In this document: positions 381 through 8,580 of the stretch, piece by piece
Position numbering within the stretch: the first letter of the stretch is position 1
Layout: each line of letters opens with the position of its first letter
Assembly (NCBI RefSeq): GCF_050320075.1
Contig: NZ_CP190022.1
Length of the DNA: 64,000 nt
Direction: 5' to 3' (one strand)
Source: Escherichia coli
GTDB taxonomy: Bacteria > Pseudomonadota > Gammaproteobacteria > Enterobacterales > Enterobacteriaceae
Made by a program: the position numbers and the translations under genes
The notes under the pieces: model-generated
Database searches by the model: none
The model's input: the letters and a program-made list of their open reading frames with translations, nothing else
What the model was told of the DNA's origin: nothing

Positions 381-734
381 TTTACTCCCCCGCTCCGGCG
401 GGGGTATGGCCTGCCGGGCCGCCGGAAAACCCTGGCAGGCTTACGCCTGCCTGAAATACAGGAGGGCCGCGCCTGCGGCGCTGCCCTTCCTGCCCGTCAT
501 GGTGTGAGGCATTTTTCTGTTTTGTCGTTTCTGTTGTTCTGATGCCCGGAGGCGGGGACACCCTTCGGCTCCCGGCTGCCTGGCGGCATCCGGTCGTCGG
601 CCCGACTCCGACAGGCAGCTGCTGGCGCACCCGCCAGTCTCCGCCGAACCCGCTGGCGCGGTTTCGGGCTGCCGCTACGGTCCGATGTCTGAAAAACCAG
701 GCCTGCAGCGACCGTTCCGGTCGCGCCGCCCCTG

Positions 735-1085
735 TCGCGCCGGAAACGGCGCTCCCTGCACACCTGACGGTGTGTAAGGCCACTGCGCCTGATGGCGCAG
801 TTGTCTGCCCTTCCGCCGCCACCCCTGCGGCCTGTTTCCCGCTGTGGACTTTCCGGGGGCTGAAGCGGCCACAACACGTCTCAGCCGTCCAGGGGAAGAT
901 GTACCAGCCACAAAACTTTTTGCCGCAGGCGTCAAAAACTTTTGCGTCTGCCCCCGGACAACTGCCCCGTGCCGTGGCAGTCGCTGCCCCATCGGAAAGG
1001 TCCACTGCGGGGAGAAACCCCGAAGAAGTGGACGGCAGAAGGGGCTTTCGCCCCTCCGGGGAATAACCGGTCGGCCCGGCGACCT
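735..1085. promoter_or_regulatory. Frpo/ssi-like leading-region repeat, copy 1 (putative single-strand promoter)
   Basis: About 350 bp, roughly 85 percent identical to 3632-3990; GC-rich, many short inverted repeats (e.g. acacctgacggtgtg, ctgcgcctgatggcgcag); ends just before the start codon at 1110. Confidence 0.5.
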
Positions 1086-1636: not shown

Positions 1637-1903
1637 ATGAGGCCATCAATTATCTTCGCAACCGCCGAGTATGTAAAGCGTCTGCGTGAAGAGTGCCGGC
1701 GGGAGAACAAACCCCTGCACCGCCATACCCGCTTCAGACGCCAGGAACTGGCACCGGATGAGATTAACCCGGACGTCCTGGCGATGGGCGGTCATATCGC
1801 CAGACGCTGCAGTGAGCGGAAGCGGGTGCGTATCCCCGCCATGAAAGTCAGCGAATGGGGCCACCTGCTCCGCGCGCTTGAAATTGAGCGGGTCTGCCAC
1901 TGA
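1637..1903 (+). CDS. Hypothetical basic protein, 88 aa
   Basis: Internal ATG of ORF 1541-1903 with ggag 8 nt upstream; Arg-rich. Confidence 0.4.
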   Translation: MRPSIIFATAEYVKRLREECRRENKPLHRHTRFRRQELAPDEINPDVLAMGGHIARRCSERKRVRIPAMKVSEWGHLLRALEIERVCH

Positions 1904-1967
1904 TTAACCCTTGCCGTCTGCCTGTGCAGGCGGCAGGATACGTTCAGACATCTCACCAGGAGGAACC

Positions 1968-2906
1968 GTGAGTAAGAAGAAAACCACCACGACGCCCACG
2001 CCGCATGATGCCGCGTTCCGGTCGTTCCTGGCGAACCCCGACGTCGCCAGAGATTTTCTGGAACTGCATCTTCCGGCGGAGTACCGGCAGTTGTGCGACC
2101 TGTCCACGCTGAAGCTGGAACCCGCCACCTTTGTTGAGCCGGACCTGCATCAGTACGCCAGCGATATCCTCTGGAGTGTGAAAACCACCGGGGGTGAAGA
2201 CGGCTATATTTATACGCTCATCGAGCACCAGAGCACCGAAAATCTGTACATGCCTTTCCGCATGTTACGTTACAGTGTGGCGGCGATGCAGAGACATCTG
2301 GAGCAGCACAAAACATTGCCACTGGTGATTCCGGTGCTGTTCTATCATGGTGAGCGCAGCCCGTACCCGTACAGCATGAACTGGCTGGACTGTTTTGAGG
2401 ATCCGGCGCTTGCGGCTAAAATATACACAAAGCCGTTTCCGCTGGTTGATATCACTGTCGTTGATGACAATGAAATCATGAACCATCGCCGGATGGCCGC
2501 ACTGACGCTGCTGATGAAGCATATCCGCCATCGTGACATGATGGAGCTGCTGGACAAACTCCCGCAGGTCATGGTGGAAATTTCAGACGAGCAGGTGCGT
2601 GTTCTGATTCATTACATCGTTAACGCAGGGGACTCTGTATCACCGGAATTTATGCGGGCGCTGGCTGAGCGTCTGCCGCAGCATGAGGATAAACTGATGA
2701 CTATTGCCGAACGTCTTGAGCAGCAAGGAATACAGAAAGGAATACAGCAGGGAATACAGCAGGGAATACAGCAGGGAATACAGAAAGGCCGCATGGAGGA
2801 GAAGCAGGATATTGCGCGTCAGCTTCAGAAAACGGGAATGCCATCTGCACAAATCTGTCAGATCACCGGACTTTCCGAAGCTGAACTGAAGAACATCACT
2901 CACTGA
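1968..2906 (+). CDS. Rpn-family recombination-promoting nuclease (YhgA-like, PD-(D/E)XK) with C-terminal GIQQ repeats
   Basis: GTG at 1968 after aggagg RBS; N-terminal PHDAAF(R)SFL...DFLE...HLP and central IEHQS motifs typical of the YhgA/Rpn family; C-terminal QGIQKGIQQGIQQGIQQGIQKG repeat. Confidence 0.7.
   Translation: MSKKKTTTTPTPHDAAFRSFLANPDVARDFLELHLPAEYRQLCDLSTLKLEPATFVEPDLHQYASDILWSVKTTGGEDGYIYTLIEHQSTENLYMPFRMLRYSVAAMQRHLEQHKTLPLVIPVLFYHGERSPYPYSMNWLDCFEDPALAAKIYTKPFPLVDITVVDDNEIMNHRRMAALTLLMKHIRHRDMMELLDKLPQVMVEISDEQVRVLIHYIVNAGDSVSPEFMRALAERLPQHEDKLMTIAERLEQQGIQKGIQQGIQQGIQQGIQKGRMEEKQDIARQLQKTGMPSAQICQITGLSEAELKNITH
2727..2786 (+). repeat. Five tandem 12-bp units (ggaatacagcag / ggaatacagaaa) inside the Rpn gene
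   Basis: Directly visible tandem repeat; encodes (GIQQ/GIQK)x5. Confidence 0.85.
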
Positions 2907-2920
2907 TGAGAACCACAAAG

Positions 2921-2944
2921 CCCGGCAAAATGCCGGGTTTTTTT
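2921..2944 (+). terminator. Rho-independent terminator after the Rpn gene
   Basis: cccggcaaaatgccggg hairpin followed by ttttttt. Confidence 0.6.
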
Positions 2945-2968
2945 GTCAGCAGGAGCAGAGCAAACAGC

Positions 2969-3151
2969 ATGACGATTGCAGAACGTCTTATACAGAAAGG
3001 TTTCGACGAAGGTTTTAAGAAAGGTGCGCTTGAAGTGGCGCGGGAAATAGCCTGCCGGCTTCGGGATATAGGCTGGTCGCCGGAACGGATTCAGGAGGTC
3101 ACGGGACTTTCCGGTGAAGAACTGAAAAAACTGTTTCCTGATGAGCTGTAG
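2969..3151 (+). CDS. Small protein (60 aa) resembling the Rpn C-terminal domain (YpaA-like)
   Basis: ATG at 2969 after aggag; MTIAERLIQKG...EVTGLSGEELKKL parallels the C-terminus of the upstream Rpn protein (MTIAERLEQQG...QITGLSEAELKNI); the longer track ORF from 2906 reads through the terminator and is rejected. Confidence 0.5.
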   Translation: MTIAERLIQKGFDEGFKKGALEVAREIACRLRDIGWSPERIQEVTGLSGEELKKLFPDEL

Positions 3152-3181
3152 CCTGGCATTCTGCCAGGCTGTGAATCACGC

Positions 3182-3433
3182 TCACACATCCTCTGCCGTT
3201 TCCCCCAGTTCATTTTCCAGTCGCCTGATGATATCTGCCTTACGCATCCCCTGCATGTGAGGCAGCAGGTCACGGACTGAAAGAGCCTGGGTGGTCCTCC
3301 AGACGGTGACGTCCACCTGTTCCGCATTTTCCCAGGCGTGCCATGTTCTCTGCGTCACGCCAAATTCTCTGGCCGCTTTTTCGCGTGACCAGAGCATGCT
3401 TTTTCGCCAGATTCGCAGTTCCCAGCCGGTCAT
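3182..3433 (-). CDS. Helix-turn-helix DNA-binding protein (83 aa)
   Basis: EKAAREFGVTQRTWHAWE looks like a helix-turn-helix segment; aaaggtg RBS before the ATG at 3433. Confidence 0.55.
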   Translation of the reverse strand: MTGWELRIWRKSMLWSREKAAREFGVTQRTWHAWENAEQVDVTVWRTTQALSVRDLLPHMQGMRKADIIRRLENELGETAEDV

Positions 3434-3450
3434 AAAACACCTTTGAAAAA

Positions 3451-3532
3451 GTGAAAAAACTTCACTTTATTTTATCATCATAATCATCAAATCAGCGCGA
3501 TAAATAAGTGTGAAAAAGTGAAGAAATTTCAC
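3451..3532. promoter_or_regulatory. Two GTGAA-N5-TTCAC palindromes in the AT-rich promoter region of the HTH gene (putative operators)
   Basis: gtgaaaaaacttcac at 3451-3465 and gtgaagaaatttcac at 3518-3532, both with aaag/cttt flanks. Confidence 0.4.
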
Positions 3533-3631
3533 TTTTTTTTGATTGTGGGTGTCGTGCTGTTTTCTCTGTTTTCACCTGTGCGGGAGTGGTGTGCCAGTGA
3601 CCACCACATGCCATTGTTGTGCCGTCGTTTT

Positions 3632-3990
3632 TCTTCAGTCGCGCCGGATGCGGCGCTCCCTGCACACCTGACGGTGTGTAAGGCCACTGCGCCTGATGGC
3701 GCAGCTGTCTCTGCCTGTCTGCCGCCGCACTGCGGCCCGTTTTCCGCAGACGGACTTTCCGGGGGTACATACACGACCACATCCCGTTTCAGTCGTCCAG
3801 GGGAGAGATGTACCAGCCACAAAACTTTTTGCCGCAGGCGTCAAAAACTTTTGCGTCTGCCCCCGGACAACTGCCCCGTGACGTGGTGAGCGTCCCCCGT
3901 CGGAAAGGTCCACTGCGGGGAAATCCCCGAAGACCCGGACGGCAGAAGGAGCTTCGCTCCTCCGGGAAATGACCTGGCTGACCCGGCAGT
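3632..3990. promoter_or_regulatory. Frpo/ssi-like leading-region repeat, copy 2
   Basis: Imperfect direct repeat of 735-1085, ending just before the start at 4011. Confidence 0.5.
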
Positions 3991-4010: not shown

Positions 4011-4862
4011 GTGATGAATCAGACTTTACCCACTGCTGACCTGAATACTGCCGGCACGACAGATGTTATTCCGTCTGTGGCTATCGACCGCATCATCGCG
4101 CAGCGTAACGAAGGTATTGCACTGTTCATGCAGGCGATGGAATGCCTGGCGACAGCGCGCAGGATTCTGCTCGATGCTTCCGGTGACATTTTTCTCTACG
4201 GGTTTGAAGACTGCGTGACTGATTCCGTTCGTCGCATGGATAAACCGGAAGAAGCGAAAAGGAATATCACCCGTCTTGCCGACCGGAAAATCTGGGACCG
4301 CCTGATGACAGATACGGGCATGTACACCTTCATGAGTTCATGCCAGCGTGATGAGTGGAACAGCCAGCTGATGAGCGACACCTGTCCTGAAATCATCCTG
4401 GACAATGTACTGGCAACATTCCGCCATCTGAATGCCAGCAAAATGCAGACATTTGAACAGGGACTGATTGATGTCTACCGGAAATTGTCATGGGATTACA
4501 GAACCAATAATCCCTGCCGTCTGGGCAAGAGAATCATTATTGAAAACCTGCTGTACCGCTGGAGTAACGGGCGTGTGACGCTGGACTGCAGCGGGCGGGA
4601 GGCACTGGATGACCTGGTACGTCCGTTTTATCTGCTGGATGGGCGCAACATTCCTGACTTCCGGAGCAGCATCGGGGCGCAGTATGGTGAATTTCTCGGG
4701 AACGGCGACAATGTCGGTAAGCTGTTAGAAGGGGAATATTTTACGGTGCGTGGCTACCAGAAAGGGACCGTACACATTGTCTTTAAGCGTTCTGACCTTG
4801 TTGAAAAACTGAATGATATTATTGCACGGCATTATCCTGGTGCATTGCCGCCACGAGTCTGA
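4011..4862 (+). CDS. Hypothetical leading-region protein, 283 aa (family not recognised with confidence)
   Basis: aggag RBS at 4001-4005, GTG 4011 / ATG 4014; preceded by Frpo-like repeat 2; followed by a hairpin with a T-run at 4875-4903. Confidence 0.55.
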   Translation: MMNQTLPTADLNTAGTTDVIPSVAIDRIIAQRNEGIALFMQAMECLATARRILLDASGDIFLYGFEDCVTDSVRRMDKPEEAKRNITRLADRKIWDRLMTDTGMYTFMSSCQRDEWNSQLMSDTCPEIILDNVLATFRHLNASKMQTFEQGLIDVYRKLSWDYRTNNPCRLGKRIIIENLLYRWSNGRVTLDCSGREALDDLVRPFYLLDGRNIPDFRSSIGAQYGEFLGNGDNVGKLLEGEYFTVRGYQKGTVHIVFKRSDLVEKLNDIIARHYPGALPPRV

Positions 4863-5515: not shown

Positions 5516-5848
5516 ATGAGTGAGAAGAAAACCCGAACGGGCAGTGAGAACAGGAAGAGAATTGTAAAATTCACGGCGAGATTCACGGAGGATGAGGCTG
5601 AAATCGTAAGAGAAAAAGCGGAGTCAAGTGGACAGACGGTTTCAACATTTATACGAAGCTCTTCACTGGATAAGGTGGTTAACTGCCGTACTGACGACCG
5701 TATGATTGATGAGATTATGCGTCTTGGCCGCCTTCAGAAGCATCTGTTTGTGGAGGGAAAACGCACTGGTGATAAGGAGTATGCAGAGGTTCTTGTTGCC
5801 ATTACTGAATATGTCAATGCTCTGCGAAGAGACTTAATGGGACGCTGA
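5516..5848 (+). CDS. nikA: NikA relaxosome accessory protein (ribbon-helix-helix)
   Basis: aaggag RBS; MSEKKTRTGSENRKRIVKFTARFTEDEAEIVREKAE matches my memory of R64 NikA; about 110 aa; directly followed by the relaxase. Confidence 0.85.
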   Translation: MSEKKTRTGSENRKRIVKFTARFTEDEAEIVREKAESSGQTVSTFIRSSSLDKVVNCRTDDRMIDEIMRLGRLQKHLFVEGKRTGDKEYAEVLVAITEYVNALRRDLMGR

Positions 5849-5859
5849 GATAACTGCTG

Positions 5860-8580
5860 ATGAATGCCATTATTCCGCACAAAAGACGTGACGGCAGGTC
5901 TTCCTTTGAAGACCTGATTGCGTACACGTCTGTGCGGGATGATGTGCAGGAAAATGAGCTCACAGAAGACAGCGAAATCAAGAGTGATGTCCCTCACCGC
6001 AACCGTTTCAGACGGCTTGTTGATTATGCAACACGCCTGCGTAACGAAAAATTTGTCTCCCTGATTGATGTGATGAAAGACGGCAGTCAGTGGGTAAATT
6101 TCTATGGCGTAACCTGTTTCCATAACTGCAATTCACTGGAAACAGCTGCTGAAGAGATGCAGTACAAGGCGGACAAAGCTGTTTTTTCCCGTAATGATAC
6201 AGACCCCGTTTTCCACTACATTCTTTCCTGGCCTGCGCATGAAAGCCCGCGTCCTGAGCAGCTTTTTGACTGTGTGCGTCACACACTGAAATCTCTTGAA
6301 CTCTCAAAACATCAGTACGTGGCTGCCGTTCATACGGACACGGATAATCTGCATGTGCATGTTGCCGTGAATCGTGTACATCCTGAAACTGGTTATATTA
6401 ACTGGCTTTCCTGGAGCCAGGAAAAACTCAGTCGTGCATGCCGTGAACTTGAACTTAAGCACGGATTTGCGCCGGATAATGGCTGCTTTGTGCATGCACC
6501 CGGCAACCGTATTGTGCGCAAAACAGCGCTGGTACGTGAGCGCCGTAATGCCTGGCGACGCGGGAAAAAGCAGACGTTCAGGGAATATATTGCGCAGATG
6601 TCGATTGCCGGGCTGCGTGAAGAGCCCGCACAGGACTGGTTATCTTTGCATAAACGGCTGGCCAGTGATGGTCTGTATATCACGATGCAGGAAGGGGAAC
6701 TGGTGGTGAAGGATGGCTGGGACAGAGCGCGGGAAGGTGTTGCACTCAGTTCGTTCGGACCGTCATGGACAGCTGAAAAACTGGGGCGGAAACTGGGGGA
6801 ATATCAGCCTGTACCGACAGATATTTTCAGTCAGGTGGGGACACCCGGTCGTTATGATCCGGAAGCCATAAACGTGGATATCCGGCCGGAAAAAGTGGCA
6901 GAAACGGAGAGTCTGAAACAGTACGCCTGTCGTCACTTTGCTGAACGCTTACCGGAAATGGCGCGAAATGGTGAACTGAAAAGTTGCCTGGCTGTACACC
7001 GTACTCTGGCAGAGGCGGGATTATGGATGGGGATTCAGCACGGGCATCTGGTACTGCATGATGGATTTGATAAACAACAGACACCAGTACGTGCAGACAG
7101 TGTGTGGCCGTTAATGACGCTGGATTATATGCAGGATCTGGATGGTGGATGGCACTCTGTACCGAAGGATATTTTTACTCAGGTTATACCCGAAGAACGA
7201 TTCCGGGGACACAGTATTGGCACTCAGGCTGTCAGCGATTACGAATGGTATCGCATGAGGATGGGCACTGGTCCACAGGGTGCCATAAAGCGTGAACTGT
7301 TTTCCGATAAGGAAAGTCTGTGGGGATACGCTCTTATTCAGTGCAGGAGCCAGATTGAAGAGATGATAGCTGGCGGGGATTTCAGCTGGCAGGCATGTCA
7401 TGAGATGTTTGCGCGTAAAGGGCTTATGCTGCAGAAACAGCATCATGGTCTCGTGATTGTGGATGCGTTTAATCATGAACTGACACCGGTGAAGGCCAGC
7501 AGTATCCACCCGGATTTGACGTTATCCCGGGCCGAGCCTCAGGCCGGGCCATTTGAAATTGCGGCTGCAGATATTTTCGAACGGGTGAAGCCTGAATGTC
7601 GCTACAATCCGGAACTTGCTGCCAGTGATGAAGTGGAGCCCGGCTTCCGGCGCGATCCTGAGCTGCGTCGTGAGCGCCGTGAAGCCCGTGCAGCTGCGCG
7701 GGAAGATTTGCGTGCGCGTTATCTTGCATGGAAGGAACACTGGCGTAAACCCGATTTACGTTACGGCGAACGGTTGCGGGAAATTCATGCTGCCTGCCGT
7801 CGTCGCAAGGCTCATATCCGCGTGCAGTTCCGGGATCCACAATTGCGTAAACTGCATTACCATATTGCAGAAGTGCAACGTATGCAGGCGCTGATCAGAC
7901 TGAAGGAAAATGTCAGGGAAGAGCGACTGGCGCTGATGGCGGAGGGTAAGTGGTATCCGTTGTCCTACCGGCAGTGGGTGGAACAACAGGCGGCGCAAGG
8001 CGACAGAGCTGCAGTGTCACAGCTCCGAGGCTGGGATTATCGCGATCGTCGCTCGCGTAATAAGGATAAAAGACGCACAACTAATGCTGATCGTTGTGTC
8101 GTTCTCTGCGAACCCGGAGGAACGCCACTTTTTAATAATGTTGCAAAACTTGAAGCTCGTCTTCAGAAAAATGGAAGTGTTCATTTCAGGGATACGCGGA
8201 CAGGAAAAAATGTCTGTACGGATTACGGAGATCGGGTTGTGTTCTACCATCACACGGACCGAAATGAACTGGCAGAGAAGCTTGATTTAATTGCGCCAGT
8301 TCTGTTCAGCCGCAACGGAAAGCTTGGTTTTGAGCCGGAAGGTTCATACCAGCAGTTTAATGATGTGTTTGCAGAAATGGTGGCCTGGCACAATGCAGCG
8401 GGAATAACCGGAAACGGACACTTCACCATTACTCGTCCGGACGTGGATTTGCACCGTCAACGCAGTGAGCAGTATTACCGGGAATATATCAGACAGCAGA
8501 CCCGTTTATCGGAGAGCCATGATGATAATTATACGTTACGGCAGGAGAAAACATGGGAGCCACCATCACCTGGAATGTAA
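5860..8580 (+). CDS. nikB: NikB relaxase (MOBP family)
   Basis: 906 aa, start MNAIIPHKRRDG; relaxase His motif region HTDTDNLHVHVAVNRV; size and position as in R64. Confidence 0.85.
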   Translation: MNAIIPHKRRDGRSSFEDLIAYTSVRDDVQENELTEDSEIKSDVPHRNRFRRLVDYATRLRNEKFVSLIDVMKDGSQWVNFYGVTCFHNCNSLETAAEEMQYKADKAVFSRNDTDPVFHYILSWPAHESPRPEQLFDCVRHTLKSLELSKHQYVAAVHTDTDNLHVHVAVNRVHPETGYINWLSWSQEKLSRACRELELKHGFAPDNGCFVHAPGNRIVRKTALVRERRNAWRRGKKQTFREYIAQMSIAGLREEPAQDWLSLHKRLASDGLYITMQEGELVVKDGWDRAREGVALSSFGPSWTAEKLGRKLGEYQPVPTDIFSQVGTPGRYDPEAINVDIRPEKVAETESLKQYACRHFAERLPEMARNGELKSCLAVHRTLAEAGLWMGIQHGHLVLHDGFDKQQTPVRADSVWPLMTLDYMQDLDGGWHSVPKDIFTQVIPEERFRGHSIGTQAVSDYEWYRMRMGTGPQGAIKRELFSDKESLWGYALIQCRSQIEEMIAGGDFSWQACHEMFARKGLMLQKQHHGLVIVDAFNHELTPVKASSIHPDLTLSRAEPQAGPFEIAAADIFERVKPECRYNPELAASDEVEPGFRRDPELRRERREARAAAREDLRARYLAWKEHWRKPDLRYGERLREIHAACRRRKAHIRVQFRDPQLRKLHYHIAEVQRMQALIRLKENVREERLALMAEGKWYPLSYRQWVEQQAAQGDRAAVSQLRGWDYRDRRSRNKDKRRTTNADRCVVLCEPGGTPLFNNVAKLEARLQKNGSVHFRDTRTGKNVCTDYGDRVVFYHHTDRNELAEKLDLIAPVLFSRNGKLGFEPEGSYQQFNDVFAEMVAWHNAAGITGNGHFTITRPDVDLHRQRSEQYYREYIRQQTRLSESHDDNYTLRQEKTWEPPSPGM

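Follow-up and report, generated by a model that had tools for sequence, protein, structure and literature searches.

A 64,000-nucleotide stretch of Escherichia coli DNA (the window) carries an rpn gene with in-frame tandem repeats, closely followed by a mini-gene whose product resembles the Rpn C terminus, and raises the question of what such a pair does on a plasmid and what the smaller gene contributes. Our reading is that the locus is probably a plasmid RpnL/RpnS gene-within-gene toxin–antitoxin (defence) module, accompanied by a free-standing RpnS-type gene. In known Rpn systems, RpnL is a toxic nuclease whose C-terminal domain sets toxin–antitoxin specificity; an internal start allows this domain to be translated by itself, as the antitoxin RpnS (PMC10400941). 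Toxicity and neutralisation have been documented, as have plasmid-borne rpnSs genes and the protection against phage given by plasmid RpnP2, with the binding and blocking of RpnL by RpnS and phage defence known only for RpnA, RpnB, RpnC and RpnP2 (PMC10400941). The locus is a common plasmid copy of the Rpn system, largely explained by Zhong et al. 2023, and because the general mechanism is already published, the gain here lies in context and a few testable details, not in a new principle. Three points go beyond the literature consulted: the position in a conjugative leading region, the independent repeat count of the mini-gene, and the finding of no full-length Rpn protein with a tail matching that of the mini-protein.

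The full-length gene encodes a predicted nuclease

1968–2906, plus strand: rpnL, full-length Rpn (YhgA-like) PD-(D/E)XK nuclease of 312 aa, predicted toxin

The rpnL gene starts with GTG at 1968, preceded by AGGAGG at 1958–1963, and stops at 2904–2906. Membership of the Rpn family, as proposed in an earlier note on this DNA, is borne out by matches of the product to Pfam PF04754 (Transposase_31/YhgA-like; E=1e-78, residues 11–207 aligned with profile positions 1–197 of 203) and to NCBIfam TIGR01784 'Rpn family' (E=8e-55; 186.6 bits, cut-off 52.1). The match to the RpnA equivalog NF007361 (E=8e-97) reaches 324 bits, below the cut-off of 583, which argues against an RpnA orthologue; the product, 54% identical to E. 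coli RpnA and 50% to RpnE, is a paralogue or a plasmid lineage and not RpnA itself. The four residues D11, D63, E82 and Q84, shown by experiment to be essential in RpnA (PMC5350276), correspond to D14, D66, E86 and Q88 in invariant alignment columns. All four RpnA catalytic residues tested are therefore kept and the PD-(D/E)XK core, the absence of which the earlier note had named as grounds for doubt, is intact in rpnL.

Other profile matches were set aside. Those to Pfam Yae1_N, HTH_7 and RepB_primase_C and to NCBIfam FliH and Wmk all fell under their cut-offs, and are attributed to the repetitive helix and a generic helix-turn-helix. PADLOC (2023) holds no Rpn model, and its single match was a 90-aa 'putative invertase' candidate profile at residues 234–291. 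A pN/pS of 0.57 for the N-domain was likewise not used, since a one-codon indel in four sequences makes the figure unreliable.

An internal start would release the C-terminal domain

2685–2699, plus strand: predicted RpnS internal translation start (GAGGA at 2685–2689, a 7-nt spacer and the in-frame ATG at 2697–2699)
[quoted passage not shown]

ATG 2697 is the predicted internal start for RpnS. It aligns with M244 of RpnA, and the internal start of RpnA at the corresponding Met has been proven by experiment (PMC10400941). The GAGGA-N7-ATG arrangement is kept in 20 of 20 relatives, the divergent N-domain type included, and the LMTIAERL box is invariant across RpnA, RpnE and the rpnL product. 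The one candidate for an internal promoter of a short rpnS transcript is a consensus match at 2395–2422 (9 of 12 consensus positions), of a kind whose frequency here is near chance level; the region holds three promoter-like sites, compared with 1.5±1.2 expected by chance.

The RpnS tail matches the C-terminal part of TIGR01784 (E=1.9e-10), and its AlphaFold2 model comprises three helices (residues 3–45, 50–57 and 61–68; pLDDT 76). The best fold match of this model in the PDB is 7TH0, E. coli RpnA-S (prob 1.00, TM 0.51/0.75), a result to be read in light of the moderate confidence of the RpnS and mini-protein models (pLDDT 74–76) and of the presence of RpnA-S in their input alignments. A PDB profile search with an alignment also gave 7TH0 (E=1.5e-15), a match not counted as independent because RpnA-S sits in that alignment, and its PPR and DotG matches are repeat artefacts. 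Of the profiles that had been suggested as a check, Transposase_31 matched, as described above, and DUF4351 (PF14261), which Zhong et al. also bring up for some species, found neither the RpnS tail nor the mini-protein nor E. coli YpaA, even at E<=10; since even YpaA goes unmatched, DUF4351 is not diagnostic for the enterobacterial branch.

Tetrad repeats change the length of the first helix

2727–2786, plus strand: tetrad-repeat array in rpn (GGAATACAGAAA, three GGAATACAGCAG, GGAATACAGAAA, encoding GIQK-(GIQQ)3-GIQK)

An array of period 12 was picked out by Tandem Repeats Finder at 2721–2788 (5.7 copies, 91% matches, score 101). In codon register this resolves into three perfect GGAATACAGCAG units between two variant GGAATACAGAAA units, and not into the five perfect 12-bp units, (GIQQ)5, originally described. 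The array begins at residue 11 of RpnS and lies within one continuous helix, residues 3–45 of the model; it therefore belongs to the long first helix of the C-terminal domain, and its description as a C-terminal 'linker' is abandoned. Zhong et al. 2023 place the onset of such repeats 8–20 residues after the internal Met, and repeat number sets L–S specificity in Rpn systems (PMC10400941).

Plasmids with the same tail allele carry the perfect unit 2, 3, 4 or 6 times (4, 5, 6 or 8 units in total), and within this allele only the perfect unit differs in number; other tail alleles have 1–5 units. Because copy number changes within one allele, and in the perfect unit only, the GIQQ array is a slippage hotspot, as the earlier note had proposed; the constant repeat number among relatives that the note gave as counter-evidence is not seen.

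A free-standing mini-gene lies behind a conserved hairpin

2917–2944, plus strand: intrinsic-terminator-like hairpin with a T7 run between rpn and the mini-gene, called from fold and conservation
2969–3151, plus strand: free-standing RpnS-type small gene (rpnSs-like, ypaA-like), 60 aa, MTIAERLIQKGFDEGFKKGALEV...PDEL
2999–3022, plus strand: tetrad repeats of the mini-gene (GGTTTCGACGAA and GGTTTTAAGAAA, encoding GFDE and GFKK)

The strong terminator previously noted after rpn is well founded: the hairpin (2917–2941; core stem CCCGGCA/TGCCGGG at 2921–2937), with its T7 run at 2938–2944, has a centroid energy of −17.6 kcal/mol, a z-score of −2.9 for the 76-nt fold, and is kept in 20 of the 20 relatives examined. 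Public annotation places an 81-aa ORF here, starting from ATG 2906 and running through the hairpin. The relatives have a gap of 61 or 62 nt between rpn and the mini-gene and TGAGTA in place of TGATGA; because neither the ATG 2906 start nor the frame of the 81-aa ORF is kept in them, the 60-aa ORF is the better call.

A tblastn search of the whole 64-kb window with the Rpn tail retrieved the mini-ORF (E=5e-9) and revealed no second rpn or RpnS gene beyond it. The mini-protein aligns with TIGR01784 positions 219–273 of 273 (E=1.6e-6), its homologues carry the precomputed Pfam assignment PF27070 HTH_Rpn_C, and its AlphaFold2 model again has three helices (pLDDT 74) and 7TH0 RpnA-S as best PDB match (prob 0.98). 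The likeness to the Rpn C terminus thus stands; the notion of a 'copy' of the neighbour's domain does not, as the mini-protein is 44% identical to the adjoining rpn tail, similar to its identity to E. coli RpnA-S or YpaA, and 58% identical to the common IncI1 tail allele of other I-complex plasmids. By this comparison, the mini-gene encodes a paralogue that has diverged from the Rpn C-terminal domain.

The tetrads of the mini-gene begin at residue 11 of its product and number 0, 1, 2, 3, 4, 5 or 6 in relatives. The RpnS helix 1 spans 43 residues, that of the mini-protein 31, a gap equal to the three-tetrad difference. An identical RpnL protein (WP_000038334.1) adjoins mini-genes with 2, 5 and 0 tetrads, so the repeat count of the mini-gene varies independently of that of its neighbour.

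The mini-gene is an independent, selectively maintained member of the RpnS small-protein family. Its core has a pN/pS of 0.31, its start and an SD-like AGGAG are intact in all relatives, and length changes amount to whole tetrads in nearly all homologues, which form 334 clusters, the best 120 of these 334 being all short. Of 14 plasmids sampled, 13 have the ORF intact; in one plasmid an IS66-family insertion cuts it off. Expression is nevertheless in doubt, because a strong terminator lies upstream, the AGGAG stands 13 nt from the ATG, and no convincing promoter was seen in the consensus promoter search. No full-length Rpn with a tail more than ~60% identical to the mini-protein was found among 1.84 billion representative proteins, and none with a mini-type tail occurs in the best 120 of the 334 clusters or in 89 representative matches; among the matches listed, the closest full-length proteins are 34–44% identical.

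The locus is mosaic

Nucleotide identity is 98–100% in the N-domain, 64–76% in the tail and 85–100% across the intergenic region and mini-gene, a pattern suggesting that the rpn tail is a swapped cassette, mosaic with respect to the N-domain. The mini-gene and the tail share 19 of 21 nt exactly from the ATG onward, and the likeness is absent upstream. A metagenome contig has the order rpn, mini-gene with the common IncI1 tail, then standard mini-gene, with both mini-genes preceded by the same hairpin spacer, and one rpn allele (L007) joins the body of one tail type to the C-terminal end of another. The probable origin of the mini-gene is recombination at the conserved MTIAERL box, by which a new cassette of tail plus intergenic region came in and pushed an older tail downstream.

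Position in a conjugative leading region

734–1020, minus strand: GC-rich element copy 1, upstream of the block orf145-orf94-rpn-mini, a direct repeat of 3638–3928
3638–3928, minus strand: GC-rich element copy 2, the same element as copy 1, upstream of a DUF4942 gene (4011–4862)

On this I-complex plasmid the rpn locus falls between ardA and oriT/nikAB, within the conjugative leading region, which confirms the placement given earlier (ArdA, 39–380; NikA, 5516–5848; NikB relaxase, 5860–8580); ardA, psiB and the mini-gene share one strand. As single-stranded DNA, the minus strand of 700–1040 folds into a hairpin of ~225 nt (−116 kcal/mol, z=−11), and copy 2 of the GC-rich element folds with −100 kcal/mol (z=−8); the element is a candidate single-strand (Frpo/ssi-type) promoter, a function suggested by these folds. 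Of 5426 complete E. coli genomes, 1378 (~25%) carry the locus, at up to 5 places per genome. The text of Zhong et al. 2023 contains neither 'leading' nor 'conjugati' (PMC10400941), the text of an IncI1 pESBL early-transfer expression study does not name the rpn block, and published IncI1 data show that not every leading-region gene is induced on entry.

Proposed mechanism and alternatives

For RpnL toxicity, translation from ATG 2697, neutralisation and defence, the model draws on homologues 54% (RpnA) and 50% (RpnE) identical. By homology, RpnL would be a Mg-dependent PD-(D/E)XK DNA endonuclease, toxic when unopposed, and ribosomes would also start at ATG 2697 to yield the 69-aa RpnS alone. 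RpnS would form a three-helix bundle that dimerises via its long first helix, and may dock on the identical domain of RpnL, blocking the nuclease. Comparison of alleles shows that slippage of the perfect 12-mer resizes the first helix in toxin and antitoxin alike; as both helices change together, each plasmid keeps a matched pair, and cross-neutralisation between pairs that differ in repeat number is not expected. Within this scheme the mini-protein most likely acts in trans as an RpnS-type binder, serving as orphan antitoxin or modulator and not as extra cognate antitoxin, because its sequence and repeat number are unmatched to the neighbour.

The foremost alternative, possible though rather unlikely, casts the mini-protein as an orphan antitoxin or decoy, expressed early, that shields the entering plasmid from Rpn nucleases of the recipient (of resident I-complex plasmids or of the chromosome), with tetrad number tracking the targets. 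Its location between ardA and oriT on the ardA/psiB strand, the ssDNA-hairpin element ahead of the block, and a repeat number independent of the neighbouring toxin are all consistent with this role. Orphan antitoxins are reported to be enriched in leading regions and have been proposed to act against host or competitor toxin–antitoxin systems (PMC11541004), and the abundance of the locus across genomes, at up to 5 places in one genome, makes encounters between alleles plausible. However, the mini-gene sits behind a terminator, induction on entry does not extend to every IncI1 leading-region gene in published data, and no full-length Rpn with a closely matching tail, a would-be target, appears among the listed and representative matches. 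More speculative still, and in our estimate improbable, is the wider proposal that the mini-gene, far from being a spare copy of the neighbouring antitoxin gene, is a leading-region 'immunity' gene, switched on at entry to neutralise Rpn toxins of resident or competing elements, or a donor cassette that switches toxin–antitoxin specificity, such that independently slipping tetrads define plasmid-versus-plasmid compatibility groups within the I-complex.

A silent reserve is a further, distinctly doubtful option: recombination at MTIAERL would fuse the mini-gene to the nuclease domain and switch tail specificity, the protein itself being incidental. The 19/21-nt identity beginning exactly at both ATGs, the tails mosaic with respect to N-domains, the L007 hybrid tail, and the contig with two tandem mini-genes, one bearing a tail otherwise fused to Rpn, all speak for such exchange, and fusions between N-domains and rpnSs regions have been reported by Zhong et al. 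(PMC10400941). Yet the predicted fusion is unobserved for the mini lineage, because no full-length Rpn with a mini-type tail appears in the best 120 matches or the representatives, and the pN/pS of 0.31, together with the start and AGGAG intact in all relatives, indicates that the protein itself is selected.

Less probable again, the mini-gene would be no more than the degenerating leftover of an Rpn tail that was displaced. In the K-12 record ypaA carries a pseudogene flag, and the mini-gene lies after a terminator, lacks a clear promoter and is truncated by an IS66-family element in one plasmid; against decay stand the ORF intact in 13 of 14 plasmids, hundreds of protein clusters, length changes by whole tetrads in nearly all homologues, the low pN/pS, and the experimental detection of YpaA protein (PMC10400941). 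Finally, it is very unlikely that Rpn serves as a recombination-promoting or transposase-like enzyme stimulating RecA-independent recombination of the incoming plasmid: overexpressed RpnA–D do raise such recombination (PMC5350276) and the locus is itself mosaic by recombination, but RpnS was unknowingly co-expressed in those experiments, stimulation is compatible with a side effect of DNA breakage, and there are no terminal repeats or target duplications, nor is any PD-(D/E)XK autonomous transposase known (PMC10400941). The toxin–antitoxin and anti-phage-defence reading supersedes the recombination framing of the earlier note.

Implications for I-complex plasmids

Plasmids of the I-complex (IncI1/K/B/O/Z) rank as main vehicles of ESBL and AmpC resistance genes, and the rpn locus is one of the earliest parts of the plasmid to arrive in a recipient cell. 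Such a position could have consequences for plasmid establishment, for competition between plasmids and for the phage resistance of transconjugants. In addition, natural alleles that differ only by 2, 3, 4 or 6 perfect 12-mers provide a ready test set for the repeat-number rule.

Comparison with known Rpn systems

With RpnA–E and with RpnP2 of ECOR13 (PMC10400941), the locus shares a PF04754 PD-(D/E)XK nuclease with catalytic residues kept, an in-frame internal start at LMTIAERL and a three-helix C-terminal domain. The likeness to RpnP2 extends to a plasmid location, a comparison by location and not by sequence, as the text of the paper and preprint gives neither the sequence of RpnP2 nor its plasmid type. 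Shared with this group, too, are 12-bp tetrads ~10 residues after the internal Met, in strain-polymorphic number, although the motif differs (e.g. KGIE, against GIQ[QK] here), and the leading-region position on I-complex plasmids is not discussed by Zhong et al. (PMC10400941).

The small gene on the same strand immediately 3′ of rpn recalls rpnE-ypaA (rpnESs) and rpnC-rpnCSs; free-standing rpnSs genes such as ypaA are established, and YpaA has been seen at the protein level (PMC10400941). The parallel with yfaD-ypaA drawn in the earlier note holds, in that the first residue of YpaA, like that of the mini-ORF product, is the Met corresponding to the internal start; each has its own tetrad count, YpaA being RpnE-S plus one unit. 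However, ypaA follows rpnE after 12 nt without a terminator, whereas here a 62-nt spacer contains the strong hairpin and T-run. Moreover, the reported clustering groups RpnESs and RpnCSs each with the tail of its own upstream gene; the same test came out negative for the mini-protein (44% to its own tail, 58% to the common IncI1 tail), which, unlike RpnESs and RpnCSs, belongs to a lineage of its own with >300 clusters.

The RpnA-S crystal structure 7TH0 heads the structural matches of both predicted small proteins, and the RpnA-S sequence is alignable from the first Met (E=8e-6); RpnA-S lacks tetrad repeats, and helix 1 is predicted to be 12–24 residues longer here. A more distant parallel, drawn by Zhong et al., is with the TAEL repeats of EcoR124I/EcoR124II HsdS, in which four-residue gain or loss in a helix likewise alters specificity; in HsdS the spacing of DNA-target recognition changes, whereas at the present locus the proposed change is in protein–protein pairing.

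Genomic setting of the rpn locus

An earlier note, made from the sequence alone, had placed an Rpn-family nuclease gene in a plasmid leading region. Both parts of this reading were borne out, and the relevant features are listed below.

39-380, ardA (Pfam ArdA, E=4e-16); the window begins inside this gene
734-1020, GC-rich element of ~290 nt, copy 1, ahead of the orf145-orf94-rpn-mini-gene block
1107-1544, orf145 (145 aa), conserved small ORF between the hairpin element and rpn
1619-1903, orf94 (94 aa), a second conserved small ORF in the same interval
1968-2906, + strand, rpn (312 aa), GTG start preceded by AGGAGG
2917-2944, hairpin and T7 run 3' of the rpn stop codon, followed by AGGAG and the ATG at 2969
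2969-3151, + strand, mini-gene (60 aa)
3182-3433, - strand, divergent HTH gene
3638-3928, GC-rich element of ~290 nt, copy 2, ahead of a DUF4942 gene
5516-5848, nikA (NikA-like, E=3e-19), ~5.5 kb beyond ardA
5860-8580, relaxase (906 aa)

The rpn product (RpnL) matches Pfam Transposase_31 (YhgA-like; E=1e-78) as well as the NCBIfam model of the Rpn family, and aligns with 54% identity to E. coli K-12 RpnA and 50% to RpnE. Mutation of RpnA D11, D63, E82 and Q84 abolishes all RpnA phenotypes (PMC5350276); these residues correspond to D14, D66, E86 and Q88 of the window RpnL, in invariant columns of the alignment. The PD-(D/E)XK core is thus retained, and the Rpn assignment stands. PADLOC-DB v2 holds no Rpn model. 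Among its candidate profiles from defence islands, however, the 90-aa PDLC01084 ('C3a178, putative invertase') hits rpn residues 234-291, in the region of the C-terminal (RpnS) domain (E=1.2e-8), so that small RpnS-type proteins may be present among such candidates without having been recognised.

A plasmid typed as IncK2/Z, MOBP and MPF_I is 99.9% identical to the window over the queried rpn region (1900-3200), and the gene order of the window is that of the IncK2/Z plasmid: parB, psiB, psiA, ardA, two small ORFs, rpn, a small ORF, an opposite-strand HTH gene, DUF4942, nikA and nikB. This shared order places the rpn locus, which shares its strand with ardA and psiB, in the conjugative leading region of an I-complex plasmid. 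Leading regions have been reported to be enriched for toxin–antitoxin genes and orphan antitoxins (PMC11541004).

The two GC-rich copies are direct repeats (84-97% identical, ~2908 bp apart) that bracket orf145, orf94, rpn and the mini-gene. As single-stranded DNA, the - strand of each is predicted to form a long imperfect hairpin (-116 kcal/mol, z=-11 for copy 1; -100 kcal/mol, z=-8 for copy 2) with TTGACG near its apex. Frpo/ssi single-strand promoters drive early leading-region operons on F and IncI1 plasmids (PMC12672017), and the GC-rich copies, with their long ssDNA hairpins, look like candidate promoters of this type. Neither orf145 nor orf94 has a Pfam or PADLOC match; co-transcription of the two with rpn is probable. 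An AT-rich direct repeat at 3435-3473 and 3502-3540 (AAA..GTGAAAAA..TTCACTTT; 82% identical, 67 bp apart), immediately upstream of the divergent HTH gene, is probably the promoter or operator region of this regulator.

A variable repeat within a predicted specificity helix

In characterized Rpn systems, the C-terminal domain alone (RpnS) is made from its own start within rpn, and its binding to full-length RpnL blocks nuclease activity and toxicity (Zhong et al., PNAS 2023, PMC10400941). RpnA-S is a dimeric three-helix bundle whose first helix carries four-residue repeats that differ in number among strains, and a given RpnL is neutralized only by an RpnS with an equal repeat number (PMC10400941). 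In the window, an in-frame ATG at 2697 lies inside an invariant LMTIAERL box, with GAGGA upstream at a 7-nt spacing; this arrangement is kept in 20/20 relatives, even in a lineage with just ~91% N-domain identity. The model of the nested 69-aa product (pLDDT 76) has helices at 3-45, 50-57 and 61-68, with the repeats inside the continuous first helix, and its best PDB match is RpnA-S (7TH0). Because of the conserved internal start, the helical placement and this structural match, the GIQ[QK] region, which had been taken for a C-terminal linker, is more aptly called the specificity helix of a predicted intragenic antitoxin. For this locus, we infer RpnS translation, RpnL binding and toxicity.

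The repeat had also been described as five perfect 12-bp units, (GIQQ)5. Tandem Repeats Finder confirms a period-12 array at 2721-2788, but in codon register it reads GGAATACAGAAA, three copies of GGAATACAGCAG and GGAATACAGAAA again, that is, GIQK-(GIQQ)3-GIQK, with three perfect units rather than five. Among five plasmids that share the window's tail allele (the RpnL C-terminal domain), three differ from it in the number of central perfect 12-mers (four in pMB8093_2, six in pCh101 and two in the mip270_05 plasmid) and two carry three, as in the window; both flanking variant units and the remaining tail are unchanged in all. Variation confined to the number of central units is characteristic of slippage or unequal exchange at the perfect 12-mer, and the proposed slippage hotspot, for which a constant repeat number was the counter-expectation, therefore holds. 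On related plasmids with other tail alleles, the array has 1-5 units of the GRQE/GRME or GIQQ/GVQQ kind.

The tail varies as a block

Against most of the relatives sampled, the window has 98-100% nucleotide identity in the N-terminal domain and only 64-76% in the non-repeat tail, with identity returning to 85-100% across the intergenic spacer and the mini-gene. There are at least three tail types, and on one plasmid the body of one type is joined to the end of another. The combination in the window is uncommon (>=99% identity in just 2/2022 PLSDB records and 9/1462 RefSeq E. coli records), and the exact RpnL protein is absent from a collection of 15 billion proteins.

The mini-gene is independent of its neighbor

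The mini-protein begins with MTIAERL, identical to the starts of RpnS and E. coli YpaA, and aligns to the final 55 positions of the Rpn family model (E=1.6e-6); its model has three helices with 7TH0 as top match. PF27070 (HTH_Rpn_C), which is not in the Pfam copy searched, is a precomputed domain on its homologues. The claim that it repeats the Rpn C-terminal domain therefore stands as homology, but not as a copy of the adjacent tail, to which it is 44% identical; its identity is 58% with the common IncI1 tail and 43% with RpnA-S. Its core has a pN/pS of ~0.31.

The mini-gene has its own tetrads (GFDE, GFKK), numbering 0 to 6 among relatives. Their number does not follow the repeat count of the toxin next to it, as an identical RpnL (WP_000038334.1) precedes mini-genes with 2, 5 and 0 tetrads; counts are equal in just 1/14 pairs (the window and 13 relatives with an intact mini-gene). 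The 64-kb window contains no second rpn or RpnS-like gene. Of 334 clusters of homologues, the best 120 consist of short proteins only, and among 1.84 billion representatives no full-length Rpn has a tail more than ~60% identical to the mini-protein, the 58-60% matches being fragments with the common IncI1 tail. By these searches, the mini-gene forms a free-standing lineage of its own, with no cognate toxin found in the window or the representatives.

Public annotation (PGAP; related loci L001-L015) often calls instead an ORF of 81-93 aa (81 aa in the window, from 2906), whose ATG overlaps the rpn stop (TGATGA) and which runs through the terminator hairpin. Because neither its start nor its frame is conserved in relatives, this is probably a mis-called start. 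On the Salmonella Heidelberg plasmid p1CFSAN000318 (L014, 1669-1742), an IS66-family element truncates the mini-gene after its first seven codons, providing a natural knockout usable for phenotypic comparison.

DNA similarity between tail and mini-gene starts exactly at the ATG (19/21 nt identical). An ENA metagenome contig (L018, 1249-1705; one contig at low coverage, ~1.9) carries rpn with one tail type and then two mini-genes, each behind the same hairpin spacer: the first has the common IncI1 tail, the type usually fused to IncI1 Rpn, and the second is a standard mini-gene. Both observations fit an origin of the mini-gene in which a new tail-plus-spacer cassette would insert at the MTIAERL box and displace the older tail downstream.

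Prevalence and comparison with known Rpn systems

PLSDB has the locus in 2022 plasmid records, and 1378/5426 complete E. coli genomes carry it, with 1467/1531 places plasmid-borne and 64/1531 chromosomal; it is usually annotated as an Rpn-family nuclease and a hypothetical protein. Some genomes hold up to five copies, and such co-resident alleles in one cell could show whether repeat number prevents cross-neutralization. The gene-within-gene antitoxin, the polymorphism in tetrad-repeat number, examples on plasmids and free-standing copies located downstream have already been published, as have the independent origins of free-standing RpnS genes (rpnSs) and their fusion with N-domains (Zhong et al., PMC10400941). 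What goes beyond the accessible literature is that no matching toxin was found for the mini-gene, that the mini-gene is independent of its neighbor, and that the locus occupies a leading-region position.
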